A DNA stretch of 32,242 nucleotides from a bacterium (GTDB lineage: Bacteria; Patescibacteriota; Minisyncoccia; Phycocordibacterales; Zambryskibacteraceae), in the NCBI GenBank assembly GCA_030674415.1, contig JAUSGP010000006.1, positions 1-32,242 on the forward strand, given 5' to 3'. Of the stretch, positions 4,308-31,706 are shown in pieces. Position numbers and translations under genes: made by a program. The number at the start of each line of letters is the position of its first letter. Positions within the stretch are counted from its first letter, which is position 1. The notes beneath the pieces are model-generated. The model ran no database searches. It had not been told where the DNA came from and saw nothing but the letters and a program-made list of their open reading frames with translations.

Positions 4308-4874
4308 TTAAATTAGGTCGAAAAAGTTTCTAAGATGCTTGTCGTTTTCTAATTCATCAACAATTAAATATAGAACATTCTTTCCAACGCCCATCTCTGA
4401 TTTCAAAAGTGTCAGAATGTCTTCGCAATCATAAGGATAAACCCAAACACTATCTTGCAGATGATAGAAACCAGCCGTCTTGAACAGGTCTCTAATTTGA
4501 TCTCGTATTAATCTCTTCCTCTCAGGAATGTCGAAAATAATGACTCTCCACTTTTTATCCCATTTCTTGGGTCTTTCTAGTCTAAAGTTGGCAAACTCCC
4601 AGCGACGAAGTATGTCTTCCCCTTTGGAAGTCATACAATATCTTTTACCGTCATAATATAATAGTCCGCGTTTAACTAATTTACTGGCTGAAGAACTGAC
4701 ATACTCACCCTGTCTCTTCCTCGGAGCCATACCGAGCTTATGCATTGCCTTCGCTACATTAGGAGCCATCAATGCCACACTTAGCATTCCCACATCCGCT
4801 ATAACTTCCAAAATAAGCCTCTGCAAATGCCTTCGATTACCTCTTTCTCTACTTTTTTCTTCTATTTTACCCAT
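4308..4874 (-). CDS. PaaX-like / Cas2-fold-like putative transcriptional regulator
   Basis: N-terminal winged-helix-like segment (KLVKRGLLYYDGKRYCMTSKGEDIL). The C-terminal segment WDKKWRVIIFDIPERKRLIRDQIRDLFKTAGFYHLQDSVWVYPYD is typical of the PaaX C-terminal, Cas2-like region. Confidence 0.75.
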   Translation of the reverse strand: MGKIEEKSRERGNRRHLQRLILEVIADVGMLSVALMAPNVAKAMHKLGMAPRKRQGEYVSSSASKLVKRGLLYYDGKRYCMTSKGEDILRRWEFANFRLERPKKWDKKWRVIIFDIPERKRLIRDQIRDLFKTAGFYHLQDSVWVYPYDCEDILTLLKSEMGVGKNVLYLIVDELENDKHLRNFFDLI

Positions 4875-13465: not shown

Positions 13466-14632
13466 TTATTCAACCTCTAGCCAGTTAGAAACAGTGTAGC
13501 CGCCGGACGGGCCATTGGTAAAGGCTGCGTCGACGAGACCTTGTTCGTAGGTAATGGTGGCATTATTGGAAAGAGAAATAGTTTTGGCACTAATTTGCTT
13601 AACTGCCGCACCATTACTCAATTCTACCGTACCATTCGGAGCATAGAGGATAACCGCTCCGGCATTATTGTCTAAACTGATGGCACTCCCGCTATTGTTA
13701 GTCGAGAGAAGCATGATATAGCTATTAGCGCTTCCTGAACCTTGGAAAGTGGAGCCGTTAGAGAGAGTAGAGACGCCATCGACTATAATAACCCCATCTC
13801 CTGAAGCGTACCCGGAGGAAAGTTTAATAATTGAACTGTTAGAAAGCACCAAGTTGCCGGTGATCCACAGAGTACCAGTAACAGTCAGGGTATCGCCGTT
13901 CCCGAGAGTGAGATTACCGTTAATCTTCTTAGGACCCAGTATGTTGTCGTCGCCAGATAAAGTCTGGTTGCCAACCGTACCGCCTGCGGCCGCCTCATTC
14001 TTCCAATCCGTTATTTGTGTATCAGTAATCGGAAGGGCTTGTGAAGAAACTCCGGTCTGGCTCTCTCCGCTAACACTTACCCCAGTGATAGATCCAACCG
14101 CGGAAGCATCGCCGGTTATAAACGAGCCGTTAGAACCAGAAATATTGCCGTTGGAATAGACATTACCATTCACTCCGGCGTTATTGCTCAAACTAAAGCC
14201 GCCCGCTCCGACCTGAATGCCATAGTGGAAAGCTACTCCTTCGCCCAAAAGCAGTTCGACTTTCACCTTGCGCATCAGAGTTCGTACTGTACCGGTAGCC
14301 GCCACATCTTTGCCAGCACTTGTATTGGTAGTGATTGTAGTGGCACTCGAACCATTAAGGTTCAGCACTTCGGTAGTGCCGACCGTCTCCCCGGTCTGAA
14401 GACGGAAGACCACATCCTCCACCCCTGATTCAGCCAGAAAGTAGCTTTGGCGCGAGGTTAGTAGTTGCGAGCTTAACTGCTGTTGGCGCACAATCGGCCC
14501 GACCAAGCCGAAAATGATAGTGATGGAAATTATCAAGAAAAACATGGTGGCCACCATCATTGCCTGTCCCGAGTCTAGTCGAGGGGCTTGCCCCGCTTTG
14601 TATTTATTCTTAAATCTTAAATCCTGAATCAT
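13466..14632 (-). CDS. PilX-like pilus-associated protein with a beta-helix-like Gly/Asn/Ser repeat region
   Basis: N-terminal TM (MMVATMFFLIISITIIFGL) followed by YFLAESGVEDV, as in PilX N-terminal domains. Then long G/N/S/T-rich repeats (GNISGSNGSFITGDASAVGSITGV). Last gene of the pilus gene string. Confidence 0.6.
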   Translation of the reverse strand: MIQDLRFKNKYKAGQAPRLDSGQAMMVATMFFLIISITIIFGLVGPIVRQQQLSSQLLTSRQSYFLAESGVEDVVFRLQTGETVGTTEVLNLNGSSATTITTNTSAGKDVAATGTVRTLMRKVKVELLLGEGVAFHYGIQVGAGGFSLSNNAGVNGNVYSNGNISGSNGSFITGDASAVGSITGVSVSGESQTGVSSQALPITDTQITDWKNEAAAGGTVGNQTLSGDDNILGPKKINGNLTLGNGDTLTVTGTLWITGNLVLSNSSIIKLSSGYASGDGVIIVDGVSTLSNGSTFQGSGSANSYIMLLSTNNSGSAISLDNNAGAVILYAPNGTVELSNGAAVKQISAKTISLSNNATITYEQGLVDAAFTNGPSGGYTVSNWLEVE

Positions 14633-14637
14633 AAATC

Positions 14638-15159
14638 TTATCTAATTATTGAGGTGCTATAAAACTTCTTGGTACGATAAGCGGTGCTAGTGCCGCTCTC
14701 TATGGTCATCTCTACCCTGACGCCTTCGGAATTCGTGCCACTGAAACGATTGAAAATTAATCCGGTAATCTCTGCATCACTTCCCGTAAGTGGCCCTAAG
14801 ACCACGGCATTTTCCTTCAAGATGAGCTGACCGGAAGAGAGATAAAATTCGACCGTACGCGGATTGCCACTCTGGTCCGTACTTTGTAACACCAATTTGC
14901 CCGGATGAGTACCGAGAATGCTCTCTCCGACATTAATACTCTCGGCCTCGCGCATTTCGCGGCTGATTCGCTCAATGCCAAGAACGGCGGAGTTCTCGAT
15001 ATTTCTCAAAGATTTGATTATTCTGTCAGATTTGGTCAGAGAAACAACCACTTGGATAATGATAACAAGCATAAAAACCAAAACTGTAATATAGACAAGC
15101 ATTTCTACTAGTGAAAAACCTCTTTGTTTCTGGAAAGATTTTTTCATTTTAGTTTGCAT
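14638..15159 (-). CDS. Prepilin-type N-terminal cleavage/methylation domain protein (pseudopilin)
   Basis: QRGFSLVEMLVYITVLVFML is a class III signal peptide motif (G-F-S/T-L-x-E). Confidence 0.85.
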   Translation of the reverse strand: MQTKMKKSFQKQRGFSLVEMLVYITVLVFMLVIIIQVVVSLTKSDRIIKSLRNIENSAVLGIERISREMREAESINVGESILGTHPGKLVLQSTDQSGNPRTVEFYLSSGQLILKENAVVLGPLTGSDAEITGLIFNRFSGTNSEGVRVEMTIESGTSTAYRTKKFYSTSIIR

Positions 15160-15565
15160 AAAGATTTGTGATATAAGTAGAAATATTTCTCGTAGTAGTA
15201 GCCCCGCTCGCTTGCCAAGAGACGCTTGAAGTGACTAGTTTAGTATTGGAATCCAGCGTCCCTCCCGAAGAAACGATATCGTCAGAAGCATCGCGGTAGA
15301 CTGGAGATAAGTTTACTGTTCTTTGGAAATTATCTATCCAAGTAGTAGTACTTGTAAGCGAAGCTATGTTGGTACTCCAAGATTGATCCCGCAAAAAACG
15401 TATTTCTTCAATCCCTGCTTCGGCAAGATAAGCCGCTTGCACCAGTTCAGCGTTAGAAAGCGCGGTTTTAAAGTAAAGCCCATAGACCCCCAGAAGGGTA
15501 ACTACTGCTCCCAGAATGATAGTGGAGGCAATCATCACTTCTACCAGCGTAAGTCCTTTAGTCAT
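15149..15565 (-). CDS. Prepilin-type N-terminal domain protein (pseudopilin)
   Basis: The internal Met gives MTKGLTLVEVMIASTIILGAVV. The 50-aa extension in the ORF track overlaps the upstream gene and is not pilin-like. Confidence 0.8.
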   Translation of the reverse strand: MTKGLTLVEVMIASTIILGAVVTLLGVYGLYFKTALSNAELVQAAYLAEAGIEEIRFLRDQSWSTNIASLTSTTTWIDNFQRTVNLSPVYRDASDDIVSSGGTLDSNTKLVTSSVSWQASGATTTRNISTYITNLYAN

Positions 15566-15575
15566 AAATGTTTTA

Positions 15576-16055
15576 TCAATTGGATTCAATTGCTCCAGTA
15601 CCGGAGATGTAAATGGTGCGAAAGTTAGTGGTAGAGGCCTTGAGATAAACCTCGAAGGTGCCGGACTGATCGGTCTGCCCCGAGAGTTTTTTAAAAATAA
15701 CGTTGGTACCGCCACCAGAAAGACTTATATTGCGCATCCCGACCAGCGCATTAAGAGTGGTGATTGAATTATTAGAATCAATAGCGGAGTAACTCGAACC
15801 TCGGAACAATACTAACTGATCACTCTCTAGGTTAACCCCGTATTGATAGCCATTCTTAGCAGAAAGAGTTAATGAGCGGGACTCATTGAGCACAGAAACC
15901 GCTAAGTCCGCGCTTTTATCCAACGCTTGATTTGCATTTAATTTAGAAAAAGAGAGTGTAACGATAGTAATGGAGGCGACCATGATACCGATAGCCACGA
16001 GCATCTCCATCAGAGTAAACCCCTTGTTGGTCGTTAGTCGTCGGTTGTAAGTCAT
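15576..16055 (-). CDS. Prepilin-type N-terminal domain protein (pseudopilin)
   Basis: NKGFTLMEMLVAIGIMVASITIV motif. Abuts the pilC stop. Confidence 0.85.
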   Translation of the reverse strand: MTYNRRLTTNKGFTLMEMLVAIGIMVASITIVTLSFSKLNANQALDKSADLAVSVLNESRSLTLSAKNGYQYGVNLESDQLVLFRGSSYSAIDSNNSITTLNALVGMRNISLSGGGTNVIFKKLSGQTDQSGTFEVYLKASTTNFRTIYISGTGAIESN

Positions 16056-17282
16056 TTAGATGTAATCCACCAGAGAATATGTCGGCATGAGCATCGAGAT
16101 GGCGAAGATTCCTACGCCAATACCGATGATAATCATGAGTACCGGCTCGATAATAGTTGAGAGATCTTTGGTCTTCTGATCGACCTCGTCTTCATAGAAA
16201 GTAGCTACTCCTAGAAGCATTTCAGCAATCTTGCCGGTCTCCTCGCCAACCGCAATCATCTCACCAACGAAGAGCGGATAGAGATGCTCGTAACCGACGA
16301 AGACCGCCGACATGGCCTCGCCTTTCTGTATAGCATCGCGCGCCCGTGTCAACGCTTCTTTGTATAAATGATTTTGCATGACATCTATCGTCACGTCGAG
16401 TGCTACCACGATCTCAACTCCGGCAGAGAGGAGCGAGGAAAGGGTGCGCGCTGTTCTCGCCGCCTGCACTTCCCGGATCATCTCACCGATGACCGGTAGA
16501 CGTAAGACGGCGGAATCGACCAACTCCCTACCAGTCTTGCTACGGAGAAACATAGTCAGACCGGCGCAGAGTACCAGAAGCGTCCCCAGGACAAGTATCG
16601 TATTGTTGACCAGGAAATCACTTAAGAAAATGATAATCCTAGTTGGAAGTGGCAAGGCCACTCCCAACCCTTCGAATGTAGCAGTGAGTGTCGGCACCAT
16701 GAAGATGAGTAGTAGGATGGCGAGGATAACCATGACCGAGAGGATGACCGCTGGGTAGATGAGCGCTCCGCGCACTTTCTTTATAAGCAGGTATGACTTC
16801 TCCATCTGATTGCCGACAATTGCGAGGGACCCAGAGACGCTCCCCGACTCTTCGCCAGCCTTAACCATCGAGACGAAGAGTCCGGAAAAGACCTTGGGAC
16901 GTTTATTTAAAGCTTCTGAAAGTGTTGTGCCGTGACTAACATCGGCTTCGAGATCGGCGAGAAGTGATTTCAGAGATTTGCTCTTGGTCTGCTTGCCCAT
17001 GACCGAGATAGCTCTGGTCACGGGAAGTCCCGCCTTGATCATCGAGCCCAAGTTCTTGGCGAAATTGATCTTCTGCTGGGTTTTGATACCGCCGAAAAAA
17101 CTGCCAAGAGAAAATGAGAAGGATGAGTTCAAAATACCCAATCCTGTAGCCTCTTTAATGGAAACGACTGTGCCGCCTTCCTCACGAATGATTTTATAGA
17201 GCGCGAACTTATCCGCCGCTTCAACTGCGCGTTCATAGACTTCCCCCGTCTTACTCTTCGCTTTGTATTTGTAAAGAGGCAT
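16056..17282 (-). CDS. pilC: Type IV pilus / T2SS platform protein (GspF/PilC family)
   Basis: 408 aa with a duplicated T2SSF-like architecture and three TM segments. Follows pilB after a 4-nt gap. Confidence 0.9.
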   Translation of the reverse strand: MPLYKYKAKSKTGEVYERAVEAADKFALYKIIREEGGTVVSIKEATGLGILNSSFSFSLGSFFGGIKTQQKINFAKNLGSMIKAGLPVTRAISVMGKQTKSKSLKSLLADLEADVSHGTTLSEALNKRPKVFSGLFVSMVKAGEESGSVSGSLAIVGNQMEKSYLLIKKVRGALIYPAVILSVMVILAILLLIFMVPTLTATFEGLGVALPLPTRIIIFLSDFLVNNTILVLGTLLVLCAGLTMFLRSKTGRELVDSAVLRLPVIGEMIREVQAARTARTLSSLLSAGVEIVVALDVTIDVMQNHLYKEALTRARDAIQKGEAMSAVFVGYEHLYPLFVGEMIAVGEETGKIAEMLLGVATFYEDEVDQKTKDLSTIIEPVLMIIIGIGVGIFAISMLMPTYSLVDYI

Positions 17283-17286
17283 TTAA

Positions 17287-19038
17287 TTATTCTGAAACCA
17301 CCCTTAAGACTTCTTCGATAGTGGTCGTGCCTTGCACCGCTTTGAAGATACCGTCTTCGATCATAGTCATCATACCATCAGTCTTGGCTCGATCTTCGAG
17401 ATCTCCGGCTGTGGCACCCTTCATGATCAATTCTTTGATAGTCGCCGTCACGCGAAGCACTTCGTGGATGCCAATACGACTTGCGTAGCCGTCTTCGGAA
17501 TCTTTGCCAGGCACGGGCTTCCAGAACGGGATCTTATCCCACTCATCCTTCGGTCCGACGATCTTCTCCTCTCTTAAGAGAGTGAGCATGCGCTCGAGCG
17601 AGACAACATTGCCAAGAGAAGTCAGTTCTTCTTTATTCAAAAAGTATTTGGTCTTACTAGCCGCGAGCTTCCTCACTAATCTTTGCGCGATAACGATATT
17701 TAAAGTGGAGACCAGGAGGAAGGGTTCGGCCTTCATATCTAAAAGGCGTGGGATGGCTCCGGCGGCCGAGTTGGTGTGTAAAGTCGAAAGCACGAGGTGT
17801 CCAGTAAGTGAAGCATTGATAGCGAGGCCTGCCGTCTCATTGTCACGAATTTCTCCCACCATGATGATGTCTGGGTCCTGACGTACCAAAGTGCGCAAGC
17901 CGTTGGCGAAGGTGAAGCCGATCTCTGGGCGCACCTGGGTCTGATTGATGCGTGCCATCTGATACTCGATTGGGTCCTCGATGGTCGAAATGTTTACGCT
18001 CGGGGTGTTTAAGATATCGAGCATGGTATAGAGCGTAGTAGTCTTGCCTGAACCAGTTGGACCAGTGGCGAGTACCATACCAGTAGTCAGCTTAAGCGCC
18101 TTATGAATATCTTCTAAGCCATGACCGTGGAAGCCCAGGCCCTCGAGGGTAAAACCAGAAACACTTTCACGCAGAAGACGCATGACCGTCTTTTCCCCAT
18201 AATAAGTGGGCAAAGTGGAGACGCGGAAAGAAACTTTTTCCCCCTCGGCGTCGATCTTGAAGCGGCCATCTTGGGGAATGCGTTTCTCGTCGAGCTTGAG
18301 ATTGGAAAGCACCTTGATGCGGGCGGTAATACCGGAAGCGGTGTTCTTCGGCAGGATCATAGCGTCACGTAAGATACCGTCAATGCGATAGCGCACCAAG
18401 ACCTGATTCTCTTCCGGCTCGATATGAATGTCGGAAGCGTCCTGGATGATGGCGTGCTTGAGCAAGGTATCGACAATGCGCACCACTGGGATATCTTCGG
18501 CGAGCTTCTTTAATTCATCTTCGGGAGCATCGTCATCCATCGAGTCTTTCATGGGCTGTAGAGCAGAAGCTTCTGCTTGGATGATATCGCCGAACTCCGC
18601 TTTCAAAGTCTTTTGATAGGAAAGGAGCGCCCACTTCATCGACTCGCCATCAGTCAGACGCGGTAGGATCCTCAACCCCACCTTCTTCTTAACGAAGTCG
18701 ATAGCGGTCAGATCCTCTGTATCAAGCATAGCCACTTCGAGAGCCTCTGCGGTCTTCTTGAAGGCCACAATATTGTGATTCCTCGCGATCGGCTCCGGGA
18801 TGAGCGAGAGTACGGGGAAATCGAGCTTCTGATTCTTCAAATCAACGAAAGGAATGCCGAGAATGTAGGCCTGCATGCGACGCAGATCATCTTCGGAGAG
18901 AATGCCGCGACTGATCAATACCGAGCCGATGCCTTGCTTCTTCTCGCGCGAGAGAGAGATAGACGCTTCCATCTCATCCTTGGAGATCAAGCCGGAGTCG
19001 ATGATAAAATTTTCAAGTTGAGTCTCGTCAATGTGCAT
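17287..19038 (-). CDS. pilB: Type IV pilus assembly ATPase (GspE/PilB family)
   Basis: N-terminal T2SSE_N-like domain, Walker A GPTGSGKTTTLY, MVGEIRD (Asp box/Walker B region), LVLSTLHTN (His box). Confidence 0.93.
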   Translation of the reverse strand: MHIDETQLENFIIDSGLISKDEMEASISLSREKKQGIGSVLISRGILSEDDLRRMQAYILGIPFVDLKNQKLDFPVLSLIPEPIARNHNIVAFKKTAEALEVAMLDTEDLTAIDFVKKKVGLRILPRLTDGESMKWALLSYQKTLKAEFGDIIQAEASALQPMKDSMDDDAPEDELKKLAEDIPVVRIVDTLLKHAIIQDASDIHIEPEENQVLVRYRIDGILRDAMILPKNTASGITARIKVLSNLKLDEKRIPQDGRFKIDAEGEKVSFRVSTLPTYYGEKTVMRLLRESVSGFTLEGLGFHGHGLEDIHKALKLTTGMVLATGPTGSGKTTTLYTMLDILNTPSVNISTIEDPIEYQMARINQTQVRPEIGFTFANGLRTLVRQDPDIIMVGEIRDNETAGLAINASLTGHLVLSTLHTNSAAGAIPRLLDMKAEPFLLVSTLNIVIAQRLVRKLAASKTKYFLNKEELTSLGNVVSLERMLTLLREEKIVGPKDEWDKIPFWKPVPGKDSEDGYASRIGIHEVLRVTATIKELIMKGATAGDLEDRAKTDGMMTMIEDGIFKAVQGTTTIEEVLRVVSE

Positions 19039-19047
19039 AAATTTGTT

Positions 19048-21405
19048 CTAAAATTCTTCAAATTGCGGATCGAAGTTGATCTGGGCAGTAGCCGCTGGGC
19101 AACTGGATTGGATAGAGTCCGTGTCGGTAATAGTTACGACAGCAGTCTTCTGTCCGATGGTACTGTAAGTCCGGTTATAAGGATTGCTACTAGGAGCAGG
19201 ACTGGTCGGGATATTGGTCCCGCTCCACGAGTAAGTGAATGGTGCTGTCCCTCCAGAGAAAGTGGCTGTCCAAGTCACACTCTCTCCGACGAAAGCGGTC
19301 GAGGGGGAGGCAACGCAGGAGACAGTAATTGGACTTCCTGAAACGATCAGGTTGAAACTCGTTTGCTTGCTTAAGGGAGAACCTGTTACCGTAATCAGAT
19401 AAGTGCCGAGGGGAGTGCTGGGACTGACCGTAAAGGTAATGACCGAGGTGCACGCCGGAGAACACGAGCTCGGCGCGATGGAATACGAAGTGCCCGAAGG
19501 TACCCCCGAGACAGAGAGGGTGATAGGCTCTGTCGTACCAGTCAAGAGAGTCTTAGTAATAGTGTTTTGAGTGAAGGCGTTGCTATTAGTTTTGGTCACA
19601 TTGGAGTTGCCGGAATTGGAAAGCGAGTAATTGAAGGGCGGTGGCGCCACGCTGAAATTAACTCGCGCCGTCTTGTCGCCATCGATGAGAGCCGAGCAGG
19701 TAGCGCTCTGACCACCACAGATCGTGCCACTCCCGGGCAACCATTTGTCAAACTCGTATCCGGAAGCGGGCGTGGCGATGAGAGTAATCCAGCCGATATT
19801 AGAAGAGTAGGTCTCGCTACAATCCCCCGGACAACTAATGCCAGGCCCGCTTATGGTGCCGGAGCCAGAATTCACGGAAGCAGTAACGGTATAAGTAGTG
19901 GTGACAAAGTTGGCTGTCACACTCTTGGCCGCATCCATAGTCACCGTGCAACCACCACTGCCGGAGCACGCGCCGGACCAGCCACTAAAGCCAGAACCAG
20001 ATGAGGGAGAAGGGGTGAGCGTAACAGCAGTATTGTAGTTATAAACCTCCGAACAATCACTCCCACAACTCACACCGGCGGGACTTGAGGTCACGGTGCC
20101 AGAACCTGCGCCAGTTTTGGAAACAGTCAGAGTGTAAACAAGAGTGGCACAGCTACTGCCATTCCAAGCTGTGCCTACGGCACAAGTTACAGAGGACCCA
20201 GAAATAGTTTCTTGATCAAGTAAAACGCCATTATTATAAAGATAGAAAGTTTCACCGCCCCATTTAATAGCGAAGGGAACATTGGTACCAGAATTCCCAG
20301 TCGCTACCGTCACATTGGTCGGTTTGGTGATTACAGAAGTGTCGATAGGATTTGTCGTGGTCCAAGAGAAATTGATATTACAGCTACTGGCCCCCGCAGC
20401 AATAACACAAGAAGAAGAAGCGGGAGTAAGGGTACCAGTACTCGGGATGACCTGAATGTCGCCGATGGTCAGCGCCCCCTGCGCGCCAGCACCAGCCGAG
20501 CCGGCATAGCCGAAGTTCGAGCCGCCTCCCCCACCACCACCGGCTCCCCGATTACCACCAGCAAGACTCACCCCGCCGCCCGCGCCACCACCACCAGCGC
20601 GCTGACTACCATTGCCACCTATTGCAGTTCTCGAAACTCCGGCGGCACCGGGTACCAAAGAAGCATTCTCGTCATTGTCGTATTCATAGTACCAACCAGC
20701 GCCGCCAGCACCGCCAGTTTCAGAAAGACCATCTCCGCCCGCCGCACCACTTGAGTTGTTGCCTGTATCATCACCGTGGCCAGCGCCTCCTCCGCCGCCG
20801 GTACCGTTACCGGCGGCGGACCCCTTCTTGCCGGGATTATGACTGGGGGCGGCGCCATTTCCCCCATCACCACCCTTCACCCCTCCAGAACCAACGTTAG
20901 CCGAGCCGCCCGTGCCACCCACCGAGTGATCGTAGGATTCCACAGGAGCTTGTCCGCCACCACCGCCACCCAAGCTCAAATAAACCGTACCTCCGGAAAT
21001 CTGGAAGGTGGTGCTCCCGCCAGCACTACCAACACTGCCGAAAGAACTGCCACCGACGCCAGCAGCACCGACAACAGCAGTGTAGGTTGTCCCCGTCTCA
21101 AGAGTGACGGTAACTCCATTTAGATTTGTCGCTCCGCCGCCACCGCCGGCTCCGCCCCATCCAGTAGAAGAGTCGTAACGACCACCTCCGCCGCCACCAC
21201 CACCAGCCACACCCTTCACAACAATAGAAAGCTTGGCATTGACCGTAATGGTATAAGTACCGGGAGTAGTGAAATTTAAAGTGCCGGCGGTAGCGGCATG
21301 GGTACCGGAAGCCGGTCCACTGTAGGTAATGGTGGGGGTCACGGCAGAAGCTAATCCCGGATTCATCACCACCAAGAGCGCTAATATAATAACGGCAGTA
21401 CGCAT
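19048..21405 (-). CDS. Secreted 785-aa modular protein: glycine-rich domain, Ig-like region, two InlB-B-repeat-like modules, PKD-like C-terminus ending FDPQFEEF
   Basis: Signal peptide MRTAVIILALLVVMNPGLASA. LNFTTPGTYTITV…VVKGVAGGGGGGGG opens about 300 aa of poly-Gly-rich sequence. YTLTVSKTGAGSGTVTSSP…FSGWSG…VTANF and a second copy follow. VTWTATFSGGTAPFTYSWSG is PKD-like. The stop lies 9 nt before the pilB start. Confidence 0.85.
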   Translation of the reverse strand: MRTAVIILALLVVMNPGLASAVTPTITYSGPASGTHAATAGTLNFTTPGTYTITVNAKLSIVVKGVAGGGGGGGGRYDSSTGWGGAGGGGGATNLNGVTVTLETGTTYTAVVGAAGVGGSSFGSVGSAGGSTTFQISGGTVYLSLGGGGGGQAPVESYDHSVGGTGGSANVGSGGVKGGDGGNGAAPSHNPGKKGSAAGNGTGGGGGAGHGDDTGNNSSGAAGGDGLSETGGAGGAGWYYEYDNDENASLVPGAAGVSRTAIGGNGSQRAGGGGAGGGVSLAGGNRGAGGGGGGGSNFGYAGSAGAGAQGALTIGDIQVIPSTGTLTPASSSCVIAAGASSCNINFSWTTTNPIDTSVITKPTNVTVATGNSGTNVPFAIKWGGETFYLYNNGVLLDQETISGSSVTCAVGTAWNGSSCATLVYTLTVSKTGAGSGTVTSSPAGVSCGSDCSEVYNYNTAVTLTPSPSSGSGFSGWSGACSGSGGCTVTMDAAKSVTANFVTTTYTVTASVNSGSGTISGPGISCPGDCSETYSSNIGWITLIATPASGYEFDKWLPGSGTICGGQSATCSALIDGDKTARVNFSVAPPPFNYSLSNSGNSNVTKTNSNAFTQNTITKTLLTGTTEPITLSVSGVPSGTSYSIAPSSCSPACTSVITFTVSPSTPLGTYLITVTGSPLSKQTSFNLIVSGSPITVSCVASPSTAFVGESVTWTATFSGGTAPFTYSWSGTNIPTSPAPSSNPYNRTYSTIGQKTAVVTITDTDSIQSSCPAATAQINFDPQFEEF
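19051..19897. repeat. Dispersed repeat copy 1 (about 840 bp), paralogous to 24237-25076
   Basis: Recognisable DNA identity, for example gatcgaagttgatctg near the 3' ends of both genes and ctacaatcccccggacaact in both. Encodes the shared C-terminal module of about 280 aa. Confidence 0.85.
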
Positions 21406-21424
21406 GTTATTCTATTTTAACACA

Positions 21425-22453
21425 ATGAAGAAAAAATTTTATATCAACATTCTCATTCTCGGGGTATTTCTTGTCGGATCGGTCATACTGATTACCCGTA
21501 CCTCATCGAATGCTGCACCGGAAATAGAAAAGATTAAAAATCTCACCAATGCCGAAGCTCAGGGGGTGGAATTAAAAAAACTTTTGGAAAGAGTTGGTCC
21601 CACCGAAGCCCAGGAGCAAATGCTCCACTCGGGACTCCCCTTCACTGGGCAAACTCACCTACTTATACATGTCATCGGGGATTATATCTACAACCAATAC
21701 GGCCCAGAGGGGCTCGCCCTGTGTCGAGACTACTTCCTTTCGGCCTGTTATCACGGCTTTATCATCAACACTTTGGGCGATCACGGCATGGACGGGATGC
21801 AAGATGCGATGGAGAGATGCAATTCTGCACCGCTGGGTGTAGCAACGCAATGCGCGCATGCCGCCGGACACGGCTTCACAGCTTGGCATGACTATGATCT
21901 TCTTAAGGGACTCTCAATGTGCGATGAATTAGGTGAGAGGGTTGTAGATTTTACTTACTACAACTGTTATGACGGCGTCTTTATGGAAAATGTCTGGGGC
22001 GTCCACAACGGCACACCTTCGGAGAAAAGATGGGTTAAAACCGATGACATCTACTATCCCTGTAATGACTCGCGCATCCCGGAAAAATATTTGAAGGGCT
22101 GTTGGGCCAACCAGGCCACTCTCATCTACCAGCATTTCAAGGGCGACCTGAAGAAAACTGCCGAAGCCTGCGACGCTGTGAAGAACCCAAGCTACCAAGA
22201 AACCTGTTACAACAACTTCTCCCGCCAGATTCACCCTCTAACCAAGGGAGATAAGGAAAAAGTTTTCTCCTTGTGCGCCAATGCCACAGGGCAGAAGTGG
22301 CAAGACGAGTGCGTGCTGACCAACATGGTCGCCTATTTCTCGGTCGGAGACAGAATCTTGCCTGAACAAATCTGTAATATGGCCAGAAGCGAGTTAAAAG
22401 ACCGTTGCCTTGAAAGACTCGACGGCATGATAAAGTATTATAGTGGTGAATAA
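21425..22453 (+). CDS. Membrane-anchored or secreted Cys/His-repeat protein (paralog A, 342 aa), function unknown
   Basis: Start at MKKKFYINILILGVFLVG (ATG 21425, with TATTTT 6 nt upstream). Motifs ACYHG, QCAHAAGHG, NCYDGVFMEN and YYPCN are shared with the next gene. Confidence 0.8.
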   Translation: MKKKFYINILILGVFLVGSVILITRTSSNAAPEIEKIKNLTNAEAQGVELKKLLERVGPTEAQEQMLHSGLPFTGQTHLLIHVIGDYIYNQYGPEGLALCRDYFLSACYHGFIINTLGDHGMDGMQDAMERCNSAPLGVATQCAHAAGHGFTAWHDYDLLKGLSMCDELGERVVDFTYYNCYDGVFMENVWGVHNGTPSEKRWVKTDDIYYPCNDSRIPEKYLKGCWANQATLIYQHFKGDLKKTAEACDAVKNPSYQETCYNNFSRQIHPLTKGDKEKVFSLCANATGQKWQDECVLTNMVAYFSVGDRILPEQICNMARSELKDRCLERLDGMIKYYSGE

Positions 22454-23723
22454 AATCTCTCTTTTCGTATTCCTACTATTTACTGTCTACTGTCTATTAC
22501 CCACTAATGCCTTCGCTCATGGCGACGCACATGGAGAACTGATCATCCGCATGACGGATAACGGCTTTGAGCCTAAAGAGCTGACAGTTACCGAAGGCGA
22601 CGAGATACTTTTCATAAACAACGACGACACGGACCGCTGGCCGGCCTCAAACTTCCACCCTTCTCACACTCTTTATCCCGAATTCGATCCCAAGATGCAT
22701 GTGAAGCCCGGGGAATCATGGAAATTTATTTTTGAAAAAACGGGGACATGGAGGATGCACGACCATCTCATCCCCCACATGACCGGTACAATTGTGGCAC
22801 TTGAGGTTTCTACCACTACCAACACCGAGACCACAACGCCGGAAACCAAGCCAAGTCTCTGGGCTAAGTTCAAAAATTTCCTCCTCAAATTATTCGAGAG
22901 GAAACCGGCGGAAGAAGCCTCCTATGATGACCATGCCAAGGCCCATTTGAAGGGCCAGCTTTTTTTCAAAGAATACGGTTTAGATGGAGTAGCTTATTGC
23001 ACTAGAGAGGCGGCCTTCGGTTGCTATCATGGGCTCTTGGAAGTGGCCTTTGCTGGCCAGAGCGAAGAGAAATACCGGGATAATCTCCTCGAAGCCGAGG
23101 GGAGTTGTCGCAAACTAGGGCGTGAGACTTCAGGAAGCTTCGCGAGCTGTATCCACGGCATAGGCCACGGCACGGCGACGTATCGAGAGCACGCTCTCGC
23201 AGTAGCACTTACGGATTGCGATACTTTAAGCCAGAAGATCAGGACTTACTGTCATGACGGCGTCTTTATGGAATTCTCGATCAGCGCGCCGTCAAGCTTT
23301 TATCATAAAGAAAATCCTATTTACCCTTGCGATGTCGCCGACGAAAGTTACAAAGTCGCCTGCGCTCGTTCTCAAGTCCAAGTCATGAGACTGCGCTTCG
23401 GTTTCGACACCAATACTATTATAGAGACGTGTGAAGAGACCGGGAATCAAAAAATTATTTATAACTGCATTGACTCTCTAGGCTACTTCATCGCCAAGAG
23501 AGCATCTGGCGAAGCAAGCAAAATCATCACCAGTTGCAATGAGATTAAGGGGGAGGCGGCCGCGGCGCAATGCGTAGCCGCGGCCGCCGGTGAACTAGTC
23601 TTCCAAGACACGCTAGGCTGGCAACAATCGGCCCCAGCAGTTTGTCAAATGCTTAGAGAGCCGTACCAACAGAAATGCCTAGAGCGAGTAGCTCAAGTTA
23701 AGCAATCATACGGACGAGACTAG
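22443..23723 (+). CDS. Secreted cupredoxin-like domain fused to a Cys/His-repeat domain (paralog B, 426 aa)
   Basis: Signal peptide …LLPTNAFA|HGDAHG. TVTEGDEILFINNDD…WRMHDHLIPHMTGTIVAL has a cupredoxin-like layout, but no Cys at the position expected for the copper ligand. Thr-rich linker. Then GCYHG, SCIHGIGHG, YCHDGVFMEF and IYPCD, matching paralog A. GTG start overlaps the upstream gene by 11 nt. Confidence 0.8.
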   Translation: MVNKISLFVFLLFTVYCLLPTNAFAHGDAHGELIIRMTDNGFEPKELTVTEGDEILFINNDDTDRWPASNFHPSHTLYPEFDPKMHVKPGESWKFIFEKTGTWRMHDHLIPHMTGTIVALEVSTTTNTETTTPETKPSLWAKFKNFLLKLFERKPAEEASYDDHAKAHLKGQLFFKEYGLDGVAYCTREAAFGCYHGLLEVAFAGQSEEKYRDNLLEAEGSCRKLGRETSGSFASCIHGIGHGTATYREHALAVALTDCDTLSQKIRTYCHDGVFMEFSISAPSSFYHKENPIYPCDVADESYKVACARSQVQVMRLRFGFDTNTIIETCEETGNQKIIYNCIDSLGYFIAKRASGEASKIITSCNEIKGEAAAAQCVAAAAGELVFQDTLGWQQSAPAVCQMLREPYQQKCLERVAQVKQSYGRD

Positions 23724-23725
23724 AA

Positions 23726-24223
23726 TTATTTTATAAGATACGAGAGCTGGACCAGAGTCTTACCTCCATTAGCACTTATCGCCACCGAGAGATTAGCCTC
23801 TACTTTAGTACCGAAGAGGGCTCTGACCGGAGCGTTGGTACTGCCTTCGGTGATCTGGTAACCGGCGTTAGTCAAATAACTTTTGTATTCGGCGTATTTC
23901 TGAGCCACCGTCTTATCGCTCCGATAACTGACAGAAAGCTGACTCGCGTCCTGATTAGGATATTCGGTAGTGGCACTTTCTAGAATCACTCCCACCTCCA
24001 AAGGAATTTCTGCTGGGAAACCAGCCGGGGCTCTTAGCGTGCCATTGACCGCTGGAGTTTCTGTAACCACGACTACCATTTCCTGACTTCCGTTTTGAGT
24101 ATCAGTTCCCTCTTCAACTTCGACAGGAGTACTCTTCATCTTGAAGAATAGAAATCCTGCTCCGATAATAAGTATGATGCCGAGAACGGCTGAAATATTT
24201 TTAATGTTTGGTGATGTGTCCAT
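23726..24223 (-). CDS. Hypothetical N-terminally anchored 165-aa protein
   Basis: Single N-terminal TM (AVLGIILIIGAGFLFF) and an extracytoplasmic domain with no recognised motif. Lies directly downstream of the 447-aa surface protein. Confidence 0.6.
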   Translation of the reverse strand: MDTSPNIKNISAVLGIILIIGAGFLFFKMKSTPVEVEEGTDTQNGSQEMVVVVTETPAVNGTLRAPAGFPAEIPLEVGVILESATTEYPNQDASQLSVSYRSDKTVAQKYAEYKSYLTNAGYQITEGSTNAPVRALFGTKVEANLSVAISANGGKTLVQLSYLIK

Positions 24224-24233
24224 AATAATTTAA

Positions 24234-25577
24234 TTAAAATTCCTCAAAATTGGGATCGAAGTTGATCTGAACGGTAGCTGGAGCGCAAGTAGTGATAAGA
24301 CCATCGGCATCGGTCACTCTAAGTGTAGCAGTTTTCTGTCCGATGGTGCTGTAGGTACGACTATAAGGGTTGGTAGCGGGAGCCGGATTGGTCAGGATAT
24401 TGGTACCGCTCCATGAGTAGGAGAGAGGTGGTGTGCCGCCAGAGACCGAGCCGGACCAGGTGACATTCTGGCCCACGAGCGTGGTGGGCGGATTAGCGAA
24501 ACAGGTGGCCGTAGTGGGGTTACCAGAGATGACCAGGTTGAAGTTGGTGGTCTTACCGAGTGGAGCGCCAGTTATAGTGATCGGGTATGTGCCGACAGGA
24601 GCACTTGAAGGAACGGTGAAGGTGACGGTAGACGAGCATGTCGGATTGCAAGGGTTAGAACTAACAGAGTACGAAACTCCCGAGGGTGTGCCGAAGACAG
24701 CTAGAGTAACCGACTGGCTGGGGCCGCCAGAAAGAGTTCTGGTGATAATGTTTTGAGTGAAGGCATTGCCATTGGTCTTAGCCACGTTGGAATTGCCGGA
24801 ATTCGAGAGACTGTAATCGAAGGCCGGTACCGGGGTGAAATTCACTCGTGCCGTCTTGTCAGCGTCGACGAGCGCCGAGCAGGTAGCACCCTGTCCGCCG
24901 CAGATAGTACCGTTCGAGGGAATCCAGTTATTGAATGAGTAGCCACTAGCCGGAGTTGCAATCAAGGTGATCCAGGTGCCGACATTATAAGTCTCACTAC
25001 AATCCCCCGGACAACTGATACCCGGTCCGGTGATAGTACCAGAGCCGGAGTTAATAGAAACAGAGACGGTATAAGTGGTGGGAGGTGGCGTAGGATAAAG
25101 ATAAGATGGTGTGGGGTAATCGTATTCCTCTTCCGGAGTTGGGTAGTTGTATGGAGGTGTAGGGTAGATATAAGACGGCGTGGGATAATTATAAGAAGGA
25201 GTGGGATAGTCGTATAAAGCAGAAGGACTTTGATAAGAAGGGGTGGGATATTCGTAAGAAGGAGGTGGGGCAGGATAATCATAAGGTGGAACTGGGTAGT
25301 CATATGGTTCAGGGTCTGGATCCGAGCAATAGCTTGGGTCATAACCCTCACATCCGGGGTTACAAATGTCATAGCATGCCCCATCTCCACCGCCGCCGTC
25401 ATCACATTGATCAGGATTACCATAGCAATCGAGATCTGCATCACACTCCCAATAACAGCCCGATTGAGCCATGGCAACATCTGGCGAAGGAATAGCTGGG
25501 GTCACAATGATAGCGGCTATAATCATTGCGGACGCGAGTATCAAAGCAGAAAATATATTTTTCTTTTCTTTTTTCAT
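24234..25577 (-). CDS. Secreted 447-aa modular protein: acidic Cys-rich module, YPTPSY tandem repeats, InlB-B-repeat-like module, PKD-like C-terminus ending FDPNFEEF
   Basis: Signal/anchor KKNIFSALILASAMIIAAIIV. CYWECDADLDCYGNPDQCDDGGGGDGACYDICNPGCEGYDPSYC. At least 8 copies of (Y/D)YP(T/A/V)P(S/P)Y. The C-terminal 280 aa are colinear with the 785-aa protein. Confidence 0.85.
   Translation of the reverse strand: MKKEKKNIFSALILASAMIIAAIIVTPAIPSPDVAMAQSGCYWECDADLDCYGNPDQCDDGGGGDGACYDICNPGCEGYDPSYCSDPDPEPYDYPVPPYDYPAPPPSYEYPTPSYQSPSALYDYPTPSYNYPTPSYIYPTPPYNYPTPEEEYDYPTPSYLYPTPPPTTYTVSVSINSGSGTITGPGISCPGDCSETYNVGTWITLIATPASGYSFNNWIPSNGTICGGQGATCSALVDADKTARVNFTPVPAFDYSLSNSGNSNVAKTNGNAFTQNIITRTLSGGPSQSVTLAVFGTPSGVSYSVSSNPCNPTCSSTVTFTVPSSAPVGTYPITITGAPLGKTTNFNLVISGNPTTATCFANPPTTLVGQNVTWSGSVSGGTPPLSYSWSGTNILTNPAPATNPYSRTYSTIGQKTATLRVTDADGLITTCAPATVQINFDPNFEEF
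24237..25076. repeat. Dispersed repeat copy 2, paralogous to 19051-19897
   Basis: See copy 1. Both copies are on the minus strand (direct orientation), about 5.2 kb apart. Confidence 0.85.
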
Positions 25578-25578
25578 A

Positions 25579-26226
25579 TCAATTTTTGGATACTCTCTGC
25601 ACTACCACCGCTTCAGTGGAATTGTTATCACTTGGGTACATCACTATTCTGAACAAATAATCCCCCTTTTCTAACAGAAGCATTATGGCGTCATCTTCAG
25701 CATAGACATGTCCCGCCACTAGACGGAAATAATTGGGAAGAATAGAATTTTTGTAATATTGGAATGTATCAAGTAGGTTGGTGTCATAATTAAATACAGC
25801 CCTTACCCCTGTAGAACCGTCCTCGAAGGTCATTTGAGATACTGCCAAGGGATCATGATTAATTTTAAATGGGGCTAGAGTTATAACATCTTGATCGGCC
25901 AGTACTTTTTCACTTATTATTTTGGGAATCTGGTATTGCTTGTAGCGGTCACTGGGCTCTTCTGCCTTGCGCATTATGCTCTCTATTTCAGTAGCAGATG
26001 GCCGGCCTCTTGCCCCATCAACATTTTGCGTAAGGGCATTCTCAAGAAAAGATTCTACCCCAACGCGATCAAAGGTGGTGGTGTTTGGTTGTTTGATTAT
26101 ATAAAGAAAGACAACGAGCAATAATACAATAACAATTACAAGGATTGTCGATAATTTGTGCGGTTTCTCTTGCTGGACATTAATTGGATCCGGCGATAAA
26201 GGAAGTTGTGGGCCCATCGATTCCAT
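25579..26226 (-). CDS. Hypothetical N-terminally anchored protein (about 215 aa)
   Basis: TM STILVIVIVLLLVVFLYII, no recognised domain. Start placed at the ATG at 26226, which follows a promoter with leaderless geometry. The ORF-track TTG start at 26232 falls between that -10 box and the ATG. Confidence 0.6.
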   Translation of the reverse strand: MESMGPQLPLSPDPINVQQEKPHKLSTILVIVIVLLLVVFLYIIKQPNTTTFDRVGVESFLENALTQNVDGARGRPSATEIESIMRKAEEPSDRYKQYQIPKIISEKVLADQDVITLAPFKINHDPLAVSQMTFEDGSTGVRAVFNYDTNLLDTFQYYKNSILPNYFRLVAGHVYAEDDAIMLLLEKGDYLFRIVMYPSDNNSTEAVVVQRVSKN

Positions 26227-26232
26227 AAACAA

Positions 26233-26261
26233 ATTTTACTTCAAAAAAAACTCTTTCACAA
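26233..26261 (-). promoter_or_regulatory. Promoter with leaderless geometry for the 25579-26226 / 24234-25577 gene string
   Basis: Minus strand: TTGTGA (rc of 26256-26261), 17 nt, TAAAAT (rc of 26233-26238), 6 nt, ATG at 26226. Confidence 0.5.
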
Positions 26262-26271
26262 GTTTAATTAT

Positions 26272-26312
26272 CCAAAACAAAAAGGTCGGCCTGCGTGAAC
26301 GCAAGACCGACC
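26272..26312 (-). terminator. Rho-independent terminator after the VWA gene
   Basis: Stem GGTCGG…TGCG / CGCA…CCGACC (26284-26312), followed on the minus strand by TTTTTGTTTTGG. Confidence 0.6.
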
Positions 26313-26341
26313 TTAAGACTCGACAGAGCTGACTCCTTTCT

Positions 26342-27445
26342 CTAGTGGGGCACGATGTACCCCTGCCGGTGACGAACCTCCAGGCCACGCCCGTTTACCT
26401 TGATGGTAATTTTGCGAGTCGTGCCCGGCTTATTGCCAGACGGCATCACGTAGCCGAGCAGATAGTGGGAACTGTGTTCGTGCACAACCCGACTGAAAGC
26501 GCGCGCGAAGTCGTTGGTACGAAGGATTGGGTTCTCCCCCGTCTCTTCGGAAAGCATCATCAGGGATTGATGGCCGCTATTAGGAGCTCCAAGTCCCCTT
26601 GCGTCAATAGAAACGATAGAAAGATTGGCCCCTCTCAAATTTTTTTTCGTATCCCCCATAATGCTGGCAAACGCGGCGTTATCGGCCATAATTTGCGCAT
26701 TGATAGATGGCTCAACCATAGCTCGCCGGTCGGACCGGGGTAGCTGATTTAAACCTTCGACCCCTTCGCTGAAAAGTAAGACGACTTTCCGTTGAGTAGG
26801 GAGGTTCTCGTTGCTCCAAGCGGTGAGGTCGTTGACAACCCGGAAGAACTTGAGAGCATTTGCCCTCCTTTCTGCCAAAGTTGCCTCCACATCGCCGTTA
26901 GGTCGCCGACCGACAAACCTACCGAGAGCCTTCAAGAGAAGCCCCCGGTCGTTGGTGAAATCCTGACCCAAACCGCCGATACCGCTGCTATAGACGATCG
27001 ACATCAAGTCGTTGTCCGAGAAGAATTGCTCGACGAACAACTGAGCCCTCTTCTTGACATCGAACCACGCCGACGCCACCTCACATTCTGGCAGATCGCT
27101 CGCACAACTCGTGGTATGAAGGTCGTCGAGAATCATGATGTAAACGCGGCCGAGGGACTCGGCTCTCACATCCACACCTGACTCCGCTATCGTCATCGCG
27201 AGTTTGACGTCCCCGGTGTTTGAGAACGGAATCTCGATGAACGAGAAGTTTGTGACCGGCTGCGGCTTCCCTTCGTCAAGAATGGTGAAATCGTCCTTGG
27301 TCAACCCGTGAACAACTTCGCCGTTCTTATTTGTGACAAGTACGTTGACCTCCACCAGTTCGGTTTCGGTTCGGAATCTCTCCTGCTGTGCCGTTGCCTG
27401 GCCAGCAAGTAGAACGCTGACGACGACTAAACACAGCAGTTTCAT
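26342..27445 (-). CDS. Secreted VWA-domain protein of the VWFA-related (Acidobacteria-type) family
   Basis: Signal peptide MKLLCLVVVSVLLAGQATAQQ. The N-terminal module FRTETELVEVNVLVTNKNGEVVHGLTKDDFTILDEGKPQPVTNF is characteristic of that family. VYIMILDD is a MIDAS-region-like strand. AGGAG sits 6 nt upstream of the ATG at 27445. Clearly GC-richer by eye than its neighbours. Confidence 0.75.
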   Translation of the reverse strand: MKLLCLVVVSVLLAGQATAQQERFRTETELVEVNVLVTNKNGEVVHGLTKDDFTILDEGKPQPVTNFSFIEIPFSNTGDVKLAMTIAESGVDVRAESLGRVYIMILDDLHTTSCASDLPECEVASAWFDVKKRAQLFVEQFFSDNDLMSIVYSSGIGGLGQDFTNDRGLLLKALGRFVGRRPNGDVEATLAERRANALKFFRVVNDLTAWSNENLPTQRKVVLLFSEGVEGLNQLPRSDRRAMVEPSINAQIMADNAAFASIMGDTKKNLRGANLSIVSIDARGLGAPNSGHQSLMMLSEETGENPILRTNDFARAFSRVVHEHSSHYLLGYVMPSGNKPGTTRKITIKVNGRGLEVRHRQGYIVPH

Positions 27446-27528
27446 TGTCATCTCCTAAGAATTGGTGCCGACAAGACAAAGAACAGAGAAAACTAGCCTG
27501 ACACTAGTATACCATCTATAATAGATGT

Positions 27529-31139: not shown

Positions 31140-31706
31140 TTATTTATTATCAATAGAGGCTTCGTAGATCTGGTCGGAGTAACTGCCGCCAAACGCAGTG
31201 CACCAGAAGACATTGGTGAAGTGCCACTTATAGCCCTTCGCTCCGCAGCGATTAGGATGCCCGGCCGACTCGAGGTTAGTAGTCAGATCATAGCTGTCCG
31301 CATAAGCATACCGGCCGACATTGCCGTAGGTGTAAGAATGGCAGTTGTCGTTCCACGGAGGGCAGCTATCATTAACAGGATCGACTGGCATAGAACCAAG
31401 GTAGGGCGCGAGATAAGTATAGAAAGTATTCCAGGAGGTCGGACCACTAGCGATGTAGCTGTAGTTATAGCCGGTGCAATCCCAGCCACAGCCGGATGGG
31501 GGATAGTAGCCGTTGTCGCTATGAAATAACTCTAGCGCATTCCTTACTTGCTCAAGGTCACTCATGCGTCTAGCATCATTGGCCTTAATACGCGAGGAGA
31601 AAACGCTAGTGGCGATTAAGCTTGAGAGCAGTGAGATAAGCGCAACGACCATCAGTAATTCTATAAGGGTGAAACCGCGCTTGTACTGTAAGGAAATTAT
31701 TCTCAT
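31140..31706 (-). CDS. Type IV pilin / PulG-like major pilin candidate
   Basis: KRGFTLIELLMVVALISLLSSLIA prepilin motif. NDARRMSDLEQVRNALELFHSDNGYYP is a typical pilin alpha1-C region. Cys/Trp/Tyr-rich globular domain. Confidence 0.88.
   Translation of the reverse strand: MRIISLQYKRGFTLIELLMVVALISLLSSLIATSVFSSRIKANDARRMSDLEQVRNALELFHSDNGYYPPSGCGWDCTGYNYSYIASGPTSWNTFYTYLAPYLGSMPVDPVNDSCPPWNDNCHSYTYGNVGRYAYADSYDLTTNLESAGHPNRCGAKGYKWHFTNVFWCTAFGGSYSDQIYEASIDNK

Follow-up and report, generated by a model that had tools for sequence, protein, structure and literature searches.

A 32,242-nucleotide (nt) stretch of contig JAUSGP010000006.1 (GenBank assembly GCA_030674415.1), referred to here as the window, originates from a bacterium of the patescibacterial family Zambryskibacteraceae and encodes two secreted proteins, open reading frame (ORF) A and ORF B, that end in the near-identical peptides FDPQFEEF and FDPNFEEF. 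We consider it about an even chance that this tail is the local form, of Zambryskibacteria type, of a hitherto undescribed short linear motif at the C-terminus of surface proteins in Parcubacteria, serving as a putative docking peptide. The proposed motif has the core [P/T]-x-[F/W]-[E/R/K]-E-[F/V/I], located at the C-terminus or at most three residues from it, and takes the local form (I/V)-N-F-(D/N)-P-x-F-E-E-F-COOH. The motif is always terminal and is carried by Sec-exported tandem beta-sandwich proteins encoded beside type IV pilus genes. Its carriers combine a constant, cell-proximal C-terminal end with a hypervariable N-terminal end, and a conserved gene for a tetratricopeptide repeat (TPR) protein of ~270 amino acids (aa) often lies directly upstream of the tail genes. 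No curated model in Pfam or NCBIfam covers the tail, and our literature search on the motif and on the link between TPR proteins and pili in Parcubacteria found no description of it; the tail appears to be both undescribed and biologically meaningful.

The relevant features of the two proteins, including their immunoglobulin-like (Ig-like) domains, are as follows.

19048-21405, minus strand: ORF A, 785 aa, with a Sec signal peptide, a Gly-rich unique N-terminal region, and the FEEF tail
19051-19899, minus strand: shared C-terminal module of ORF A, residues 503-785
19051-19074, minus strand: ORF A tail FDPQFEEF, with the stop codon at 19048-19050 directly after it
24234-25577, minus strand: ORF B, 447 aa, with a signal peptide or membrane anchor at the N-terminus
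24831-25067, minus strand: InlB B-repeat-like domain of ORF B, residues 171-249
24507-24821, minus strand: Ig-like middle domain of ORF B, residues ~253-357
24261-24506, minus strand: PKD-like terminal domain of ORF B, residues ~358-439, with ATVQIN as its last strand
24237-24260, minus strand: ORF B tail FDPNFEEF, a coil in the AlphaFold2 model

ORF A is composed of two InlB B-repeats, an Ig-like domain, and a PKD-like domain followed by the FEEF tail, and ORF B of a Cys-rich module, YPTPSY linker repeats, an InlB B-repeat, an Ig-like domain, and a PKD-like domain, again followed by the tail. The first-pass annotation, made from the letters of the DNA, had described a shared 280-aa C-terminal module with a near-identical tail, and two comparisons agreed with this description: residues 507-785 of ORF A matched residues 171-447 of ORF B with 65% identity and 81% positives (BLASTP, E 8e-122), and when aligned globally from TTYTV to their ends the two proteins showed 67% amino acid identity over 280 codons. 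Both proteins end in QINFDPxFEEF (QINFDPQFEEF in ORF A, QINFDPNFEEF in ORF B) with the stop codon next and no hydrophobic or basic extension, and neither matched an NCBIfam CTERM model at E <= 0.1; as the first pass had noted, no transmembrane segment or known sorting motif follows the tail. No further ORF in the window has an FEEF-type end. The database protein P0001, listed as 100% identical to ORF B, has one residue change (NIPTNP vs NILTNP).

The domain calls of the first pass also held. Flg_new_2, the Pfam model for the InlB B-repeat, scored 39.4 bits in ORF A and 33.6 bits in ORF B (cut-off 23.6), and PKD_4 reached 22.8 bits in ORF B, under its 27-bit cut-off. Despite this sub-threshold score, a profile of the last 100 aa and the modelled beta-sandwich place the end of ORF B among PKD domains, and the PDB matches of this terminal domain are the Ig/PKD domains of Hoc. 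Modelling of ORF B residues 168-447 (AlphaFold2, 47-sequence alignment) yielded three soluble beta-sandwich domains with a mean predicted local distance difference test (pLDDT) score of 94, and Foldseek neighbours of the module were generic tandem-Ig adhesin stalks only. The final strand of the model stops at ATVQIN, leaving the last eight residues, FDPNFEEF, as coil; the block of the last 10 residues (271-280) had a mean pLDDT of 76 vs 94 overall. The N-terminal halves had been called unrelated, which is correct overall apart from a further InlB B-repeat in ORF A, at residues 433-500. No relatives of ORF A residues 1-340 or ORF B residues 1-166 were detected among 115 loci and ~350 proteins, and the only N-terminal parts recurring elsewhere were the low-complexity YPTPSY linker and an ~80-aa segment of ORF A (343-420). 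This pattern fits what would be an extreme variability of the N-terminal regions of both proteins.

Conservation of the tail extends far beyond the window. With ORF B as the query, 78 homologs were found, ~60 of which are non-redundant and carry the tail; they range from 310 to 755 aa, or to about 930 aa on the widest count, with very different N-termini, and the annotated members of the set are proteins from metagenome-assembled genomes (MAGs) of Zambryskibacteria, Parcubacteria, or Minisyncoccia. This sample was gathered by whole-protein homology and hence has no bias toward the tail. Its last 10 residues (n = 60) follow the logo [I45/V15]-N47-F58-[D36/N21]-P59-x-[F43/L12]-E52-E60-F59, with F-8 kept in 58/60, P-6 in 59/60, E-2 in 60/60, and F-1 in 59/60 homologs. 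Within the module, conservation is lowest in the InlB B-repeat, which about half of the homologs lack. A degenerate DNA pattern encoding N-F-[DN]-P-x-[FL]-E-E-F-stop, run over 185,579 species-representative genomes, had 27 matches in 23 stretches; by our estimate (a pattern of ~40 bits, 1.2e12 positions), ~1 would be expected by chance. All 27 come from Patescibacteria MAGs; each is in frame, has TAA, TAG, or TGA as the next codon, and follows the same PKD-like domain. In one of these stretches (L013:4041-4195), a second match lies 155 nt past the first and is preceded by masked bases (X); it is probably an artefact of assembly or masking rather than another gene. At the invariant residues synonymous codons were used freely (Pro: CCG 8, CCC 9, CCT 6, CCA 6; Glu: GAA about as often as GAG), which therefore indicates purifying selection and not shared recent DNA, and as judged from this turnover the tail is under strong purifying selection. 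The first-pass annotation had warned that a tail absent from orthologs, or confined to this pair, would be explained by recent duplication alone; the tail was found in ~60 homologs and 27 loci. This conservation, the codon turnover, a second family of terminal domains that carries the tail, and the proximity to pilus genes support the view of the tail as a functional mark at the C-terminus of secreted proteins linked to a pilus locus; the recognition tag for export, anchoring, or pilus docking suggested in the first pass is thereby partly supported.

Examination of the PKD-like domain addressed whether the tail is separable from the fold that precedes it. When the profile of the last 100 aa was compared with 1.84 billion representative proteins, 17,400 were matched, with giant multi-PKD-repeat proteins at the top. 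The matches to these multi-PKD-repeat proteins cover only profile positions ~5-96, so the domain is an ordinary PKD-type repeat and the tail lies outside that repeat. Among the best 150 of the 17,400 proteins, the tail was internal in none and terminal only in P0139. On the basis of the profile positions and this survey, we reject the idea that the tail belongs to the PKD fold in general. P0139 (1047 aa) ends in ...VTIGLTPHFEEF after a last domain of a different type, and P0229, which is 40% identical to it, ends in ...VTLVPAFEEF. In its genome (GCA_040384205.1, a 749-kb contig from the candidate phyla radiation, or CPR; L028:10001-13911), the P0139 gene and a Y1 transposase gene stand between the genes for L2 and S19, as an insertion in the operon of ribosomal proteins.

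In metagenomes, 79 loci matched the pattern [IV]-x-[FL]-x(not D/N)-P-x-F-E-E-F-stop, about half of them short chance ORFs, near a rough chance estimate. The 25 long ORFs comprised five variants of the type-1 tail, the form that follows the PKD-like domain (NFSP, NFFP, YFRP), and ~20 with what we term a type-2 terminal domain, an Ig-like domain of ~85 aa with the consensus ..STYTLxC....DSxTVxLIPxFEEF. All complete ones have a signal peptide or membrane anchor. The type-2 domains share a mean identity of 39% among themselves, and no sequence similarity to the type-1 PKD-like domain was detectable (blastp E > 0.1). In locus L111, a tail variant follows a non-Ig, Asp-rich segment. These observations show that the tail is portable across terminal domains of unrelated sequence.

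A recurrent partner of the tail genes is a gene for a TPR-solenoid protein of ~270 aa that has a hydrophobic helix at its N-terminus. It lies less than 100 nt upstream on the same strand in six type-1 loci (L001/L002, L005, L013, L024, and L026) and four type-2 loci (L045, L048, L060, and L064), and 1.2 kb away in the type-1 locus L009. The TPR family is highly conserved, with 512 members at E <= 1e-3 that are named as proteins of Zambryski-, Sung-, and Azambacteria or Paceibacterota. In a reciprocal test independent of the tail, the genes downstream of eight TPR homologs of other lineages were inspected; all eight homologs are followed by a co-directional gene whose product, a large secreted protein of several domains, closes with a tail variant, and in seven cases this gene is adjacent. 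In the eighth locus, L108, an Lnt-like gene and one opposite-strand gene lie between the TPR gene and the tail-variant gene. This Lnt-like gene (L108:7808-9460, from a Sungbacteria MAG) encodes LNT_N and CN_hydrolase domains and belongs to the apolipoprotein N-acyltransferase family. The C-terminal ends at these loci are the following.

L109: ..VLTFEEVEP
L111: ..NNPTFEEVAP
L108: ..PIQNFREVAP
L110: ..LALPEFREIIPR
L112, L113: ..LALPEWKEIIPR
L114: ..LGLPQWKEIIPR
L115: ..GGGWNEIPPE

Related tails (TFEEVEP, PEWKEIIPR, and GWNEIPPE) thus close other secreted multi-domain proteins, and a common core, [P/T]-x-[F/W]-[E/R/K/N]-E-[F/V/I], falls within the last eight residues, with an estimated chance of ~0.003 per protein. 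The pairing of TPR and tail genes is kept in at least three upstream contexts, namely a YcaO/nitroreductase/second-TPR block, a DsbA-like region, and a spermidine-synthase-like region. The structural model of the TPR protein (mean pLDDT 93.5) consists of the N-terminal helix and 14 helices forming an all-alpha solenoid, and the N-terminal helix together with positive-inside N-termini suggests that the TPR domain may face outward. Upstream of the TPR gene, several Parcubacteria carry a conserved block encoding an epimerase, YcaO, a nitroreductase (SagB-like), a ~480-aa protein with no assigned family, and a second TPR protein of ~360 aa (L108:582-5536, L109:737-6278, L110:1375-6046, L112:3129-6981, L114:1-5403, and L024:5016-7584). 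This block could be a modification cluster of the azoline type, as in ribosomally synthesized and post-translationally modified peptides, or another YcaO-dependent one.

The adjacent pilus system noted in the first pass is indeed present, and the genes of the locus are listed below.

17287-19038, minus strand: PilB-type assembly ATPase with T2SSE and MshEN domains, directly downstream of ORF A
16056-17282, minus strand: PilC-type platform protein (T2SSF)
15576-16055, about 15149-15715, and 14638-15159, minus strand: pilin/pseudopilin genes, syntenic in related loci
13466-14632, minus strand: conserved gene for a 388-aa protein with no assigned family, syntenic in related loci
23726-24223, minus strand: p165, a bitopic membrane protein of no known family, directly downstream of ORF B
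21329-22453 and 22443-23723, plus strand: two cupredoxin-like paralogs that separate ORF A from p165 and ORF B

A tail gene is located directly upstream of pilB on the same strand in ~19/26 related loci, and in ~10 related loci a p165 homolog intervenes between these two genes. In the window, ORF A holds the pilB-proximal slot, with ORF B and p165 upstream of it; tandem pairs of tail genes occur in L004, L019, L023, and L026 as well. The gene content of the window (ComEC, RecJ, HIT, LTD) and its order match loci from Parcubacteria and Zambryskibacteria MAGs, with TIM and PGK following the pilus block and the 388-aa gene. Pfam detected no N_methyl/prepilin motif in ORF A or ORF B, whose N-termini are of the Sec type, and found one in the neighbouring pilins. 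P0066, a partial protein of 419 aa from a Minisyncoccia MAG, has a prepilin N-terminus (GFTIVELL), a YPTPSY-type linker, and two Ig-like middle domains, and by this architecture is a predicted modular pilin displaying the same Ig-like domain as ORF A and ORF B.

The protein p165 was rejected as a PilN or PilO homolog given the absence of BLASTP similarity to either, and it had no PDB or Pfam match. A cupredoxin-like domain was found in one of the two plus-strand paralogs; homologs of the pair occupy the same position in L015 and lie beside the tail gene in L022, and are not at this position in L001. The p217 and VWA neighbours (25579-27451) do not recur in related loci. The VWA-domain protein (TIGR03436; 26342-27451, minus strand) lies upstream of ORF B, and neither it nor a PaaX_M/Cas2-like protein (4308-4874, minus strand) recurs near tail genes. 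A further prepilin-type gene (31140-31706, minus strand) stands apart from the main pilus operon and does not recur near tail genes elsewhere.

Taken as a docking peptide, the flexible acidic/aromatic tail would protrude from the last Ig-like domain after Sec export and hold the protein non-covalently at the cell surface or the pilus machinery, replacing the signals of sortase-type systems, which consist of a motif, a transmembrane helix, and a basic tail. The variable N-terminal domains would then act as outward-facing adhesin or host-contact modules. TPR domains are known to read extreme C-terminal peptides, including EEVD-COOH (Hop and CHIP), SKL-COOH (PEX5), and IR tails (APC3 of the APC/C). 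By analogy, the most likely reader of the tail would be the TPR protein, with its TPR domain on the extracytoplasmic side. In its most specific form, which we put forward tentatively and at well below even chances, this proposal amounts to a Parcubacteria sorting system with no transmembrane segment in the signal, in which an extracytoplasmic, membrane-anchored TPR receptor would capture PxFEEF-COOH or its variants and tether host-contact proteins at the type IV pilus.

Several findings weigh against docking by a TPR reader. Docking itself we infer from conservation and gene order. The last ~195 aa of the type-1 family, comprising the Ig-like and PKD-like domains, are as conserved as the tail, making the tail inseparable from its domain in the main family. 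The type-2 set was picked by the tail pattern, and in view of this circularity it attests to portability and not to conservation of the tail. An adjacent TPR gene is present in only ~25-30% of the tail loci with enough flank, and the 32-kb window contains no TPR homolog. The Foldseek matches of the TPR model are generic TPR superhelices, among them the peptide-binding OGT, PEX5, LGN, and APC/C. No covariation between TPR proteins and tails was visible in 15 pairs; the TPR protein is nearly invariant and the tails differ by lineage. Tail variants b to d carry two to three residues after the core, and a strict carboxylate clamp on the last residue is consequently not universal. Furthermore, adjacency of the TPR and tail genes may partly reflect shared ancestry in small, syntenic Parcubacteria genomes.

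A different view, which we regard as unlikely, holds that an enzyme or an export machine recognizes the tail, which would then not be a passive docking peptide. In the enzymatic form, a peptidase or transpeptidase would trim the tail or attach the C-terminus so created to envelope or pilus, making it a counterpart of sortase or exosortase that acts on a signal with no transmembrane helix; in the export form, the type IV pilus apparatus would push the folded protein through the envelope, in the manner of TcpF, which is secreted by the toxin-coregulated pilus. The strictly terminal position of the motif and the location of its genes at the head of the pilB-pilC-pilin operon are compatible with either form, and we know of no linear secretion signal among substrates of type II secretion or type IV pili, which speaks against this view. 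As to enzymes, the Lnt-like acyltransferase gene between the TPR and tail genes of L108 would suit this view, yet no protease, sortase-like, or ligase gene stands consistently beside the tail genes in the loci inspected. Vasohibins cut the last residue off tubulin tails ending in EEY or EEF. A conserved vasohibin-like cysteine protease with an undefined substrate, CPR-C4, is encoded in CPR genomes (PMC9108980). However, no signal peptide or secretion has been reported for CPR-C4, its gene neighbourhood is uninformative on function (PMC9108980), and none of the unassigned window ORFs compared with PDB sequences resembled it; CPR-C4 stands as a lead from published work and not as a match. Autocleavage at the (D/N)-P bond, through the Asp-Pro chemistry of FrpC or the N|PTH chemistry of FlhB, was rejected as a general mechanism because only type-1 tails carry D/N at position -7, where T, I, V, A, L, S, or R stands in type-2 tails and in the variants.

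It is likewise improbable, in our estimate, that the tail does no more than cap the terminal beta-sandwich, packing on its own protein or on a neighbouring copy with no dedicated receptor. Under such an arrangement, head-to-tail arrays or donor-strand-like contacts would be possible and the tail would be inherited with its domain. The similar conservation of tail and preceding ~195 aa, and the presence of NF(D/N)PxFEEF behind the same PKD-like domain in every one of the genome matches, agree with this, and the carrier domains of both types are Ig-like, with distant homology a possibility. In addition, the CPR Pam pili are reported to be built from Ig-like pilins by strand exchange (bioRxiv 10.64898/2026.03.03.709456). 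On the other hand, the generic PKD repeats match the profile without the tail, the best-150 survey found it terminal in P0139 and never internal, and AlphaFold2 leaves the last eight residues as an unpacked coil of lower confidence. Moreover, the tail is seen behind a domain of unrelated sequence and, as a variant, behind a non-Ig segment.

The idea that recent tandem duplication or gene conversion within one genome explains the module and its tail, for which one could cite the two copies less than 6 kb apart in the window, the tandem pairs of the other four loci, and the nearly identical C-terminal ends of the L023 pair, is refuted by the diverged DNA and by the conservation of module and tail in dozens of further genomes, and we consider it extremely improbable. 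The two DNA copies, which had been described as similar enough for gene conversion or module shuffling, proved too divergent: they share 69% nt identity, 47% identity at third codon positions, and a longest exact run of 20 nt, making gene conversion unlikely. Only 46% of identical amino acids use the same codon, and the synonymous sites of the two copies are near saturation. The similarity of ORF A and ORF B is, by these measures, maintained at the protein level and not at the DNA level.

Much of bacterial diversity consists of CPR bacteria, which live attached to host cells, and how they display and retain surface proteins is largely obscure. With a clade-wide signature, the surface proteins and adhesins of uncultivated Parcubacteria could be listed simply from sequence. 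The signature marks proteins with hypervariable, outward-facing domains and is genetically tied to type IV pilus genes and a conserved TPR protein. The tail peptide and the TPR ectodomain form a testable candidate ligand-receptor pair. There is a fair chance that the tail marks a mechanistically new sorting system of Parcubacteria with no transmembrane segment; if confirmed, this would constitute a mechanistically new class of prokaryotic sorting signal.

Among known systems, the sortase-type signals (LPXTG/sortase, PEP-CTERM/exosortase, GlyGly-CTERM/rhombosortase, and PGF-CTERM/archaeosortase) are comparable in that they, like FEEF, are short, lineage-restricted C-terminal signatures on diverse surface proteins, with a constant cell-proximal C-terminus and variable N-terminal domains. 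Unlike them, FEEF has no transmembrane helix and no basic tail, as ORF A, ORF B, and the 27 loci all stop at this point, and no sortase-like gene is linked to the FEEF loci. The contrast is illustrated by P0067, a related CPR protein of 542 aa in which PKD repeats are followed by IPATG, a hydrophobic helix, and basic residues, a classical sortase-type signal. The C-terminal domain (CTD) of the type IX secretion system (T9SS) of Bacteroidota resembles the present case in being a C-terminal Ig-like beta-sandwich (here ~85-195 aa) on diverse passengers, with many carriers per clade. It differs in that the conserved terminal peptide described here also occurs on unrelated terminal domains, and its hosts are Patescibacteria, which to our knowledge have neither an outer membrane nor a T9SS; no T9SS CTD model (Por_Secre_tail-type) in Pfam or NCBIfam matched ORF A or ORF B. 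The beta-signal of outer-membrane proteins, a C-terminal Phe read by the beta-barrel assembly machinery (BAM), does not apply, as the ORF B model consists of soluble beta-sandwiches and no barrel. PKD/Ig-like adhesin stalks (SraP, SiiE, RTX adhesins, and phage Hoc) share the tandem beta-sandwich fold and are generic repeats with no terminal FEEF.

Pilus-locus proteins, including the PilF/PilW/Tgl pilotins, TcpF, PilY1, and modular pilins such as S. sanguinis PilB (PMC8179133), likewise place a secreted non-pilin and a TPR protein with pilB, pilC, and pilins. In contrast to pilotin systems, no secretin for a pilotin is present here, and ORF A and ORF B have Sec signal peptides and not prepilin sequences; no sequence similarity to PilF/PilW/Tgl, TcpF, PilY1, or modular pilins was found. 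The Pam pili of CPR (PamA/PamB) are described as consisting of a two-domain pilin whose incomplete Ig-like CTD is completed by a linker strand of its neighbour, with chaperone-like genes in the pam operon and occurrence in Saccharimonadia and Microgenomatia (bioRxiv 10.64898/2026.03.03.709456). These reported lineages differ from those of the FEEF carriers.

The TPR receptors Hop/CHIP, PEX5, and APC3 present a parallel to the proposed pair, combining an acidic/hydrophobic motif at the extreme C-terminus with a dedicated TPR protein; the candidate counterpart described here is highly conserved, and in some of the loci its gene adjoins the tail gene. The comparison is qualified by the lack of a TPR gene in the window and by the two to three extra residues of the tail variants. 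Hop/CHIP, PEX5, and APC3 are eukaryotic and cytosolic, whereas the candidate pair described here would act outside the bacterial membrane. If true, the docking of FEEF-type tails to TPR proteins would represent a bacterial, extracellular counterpart of the eukaryotic code by which TPR domains recognize C-terminal peptides.

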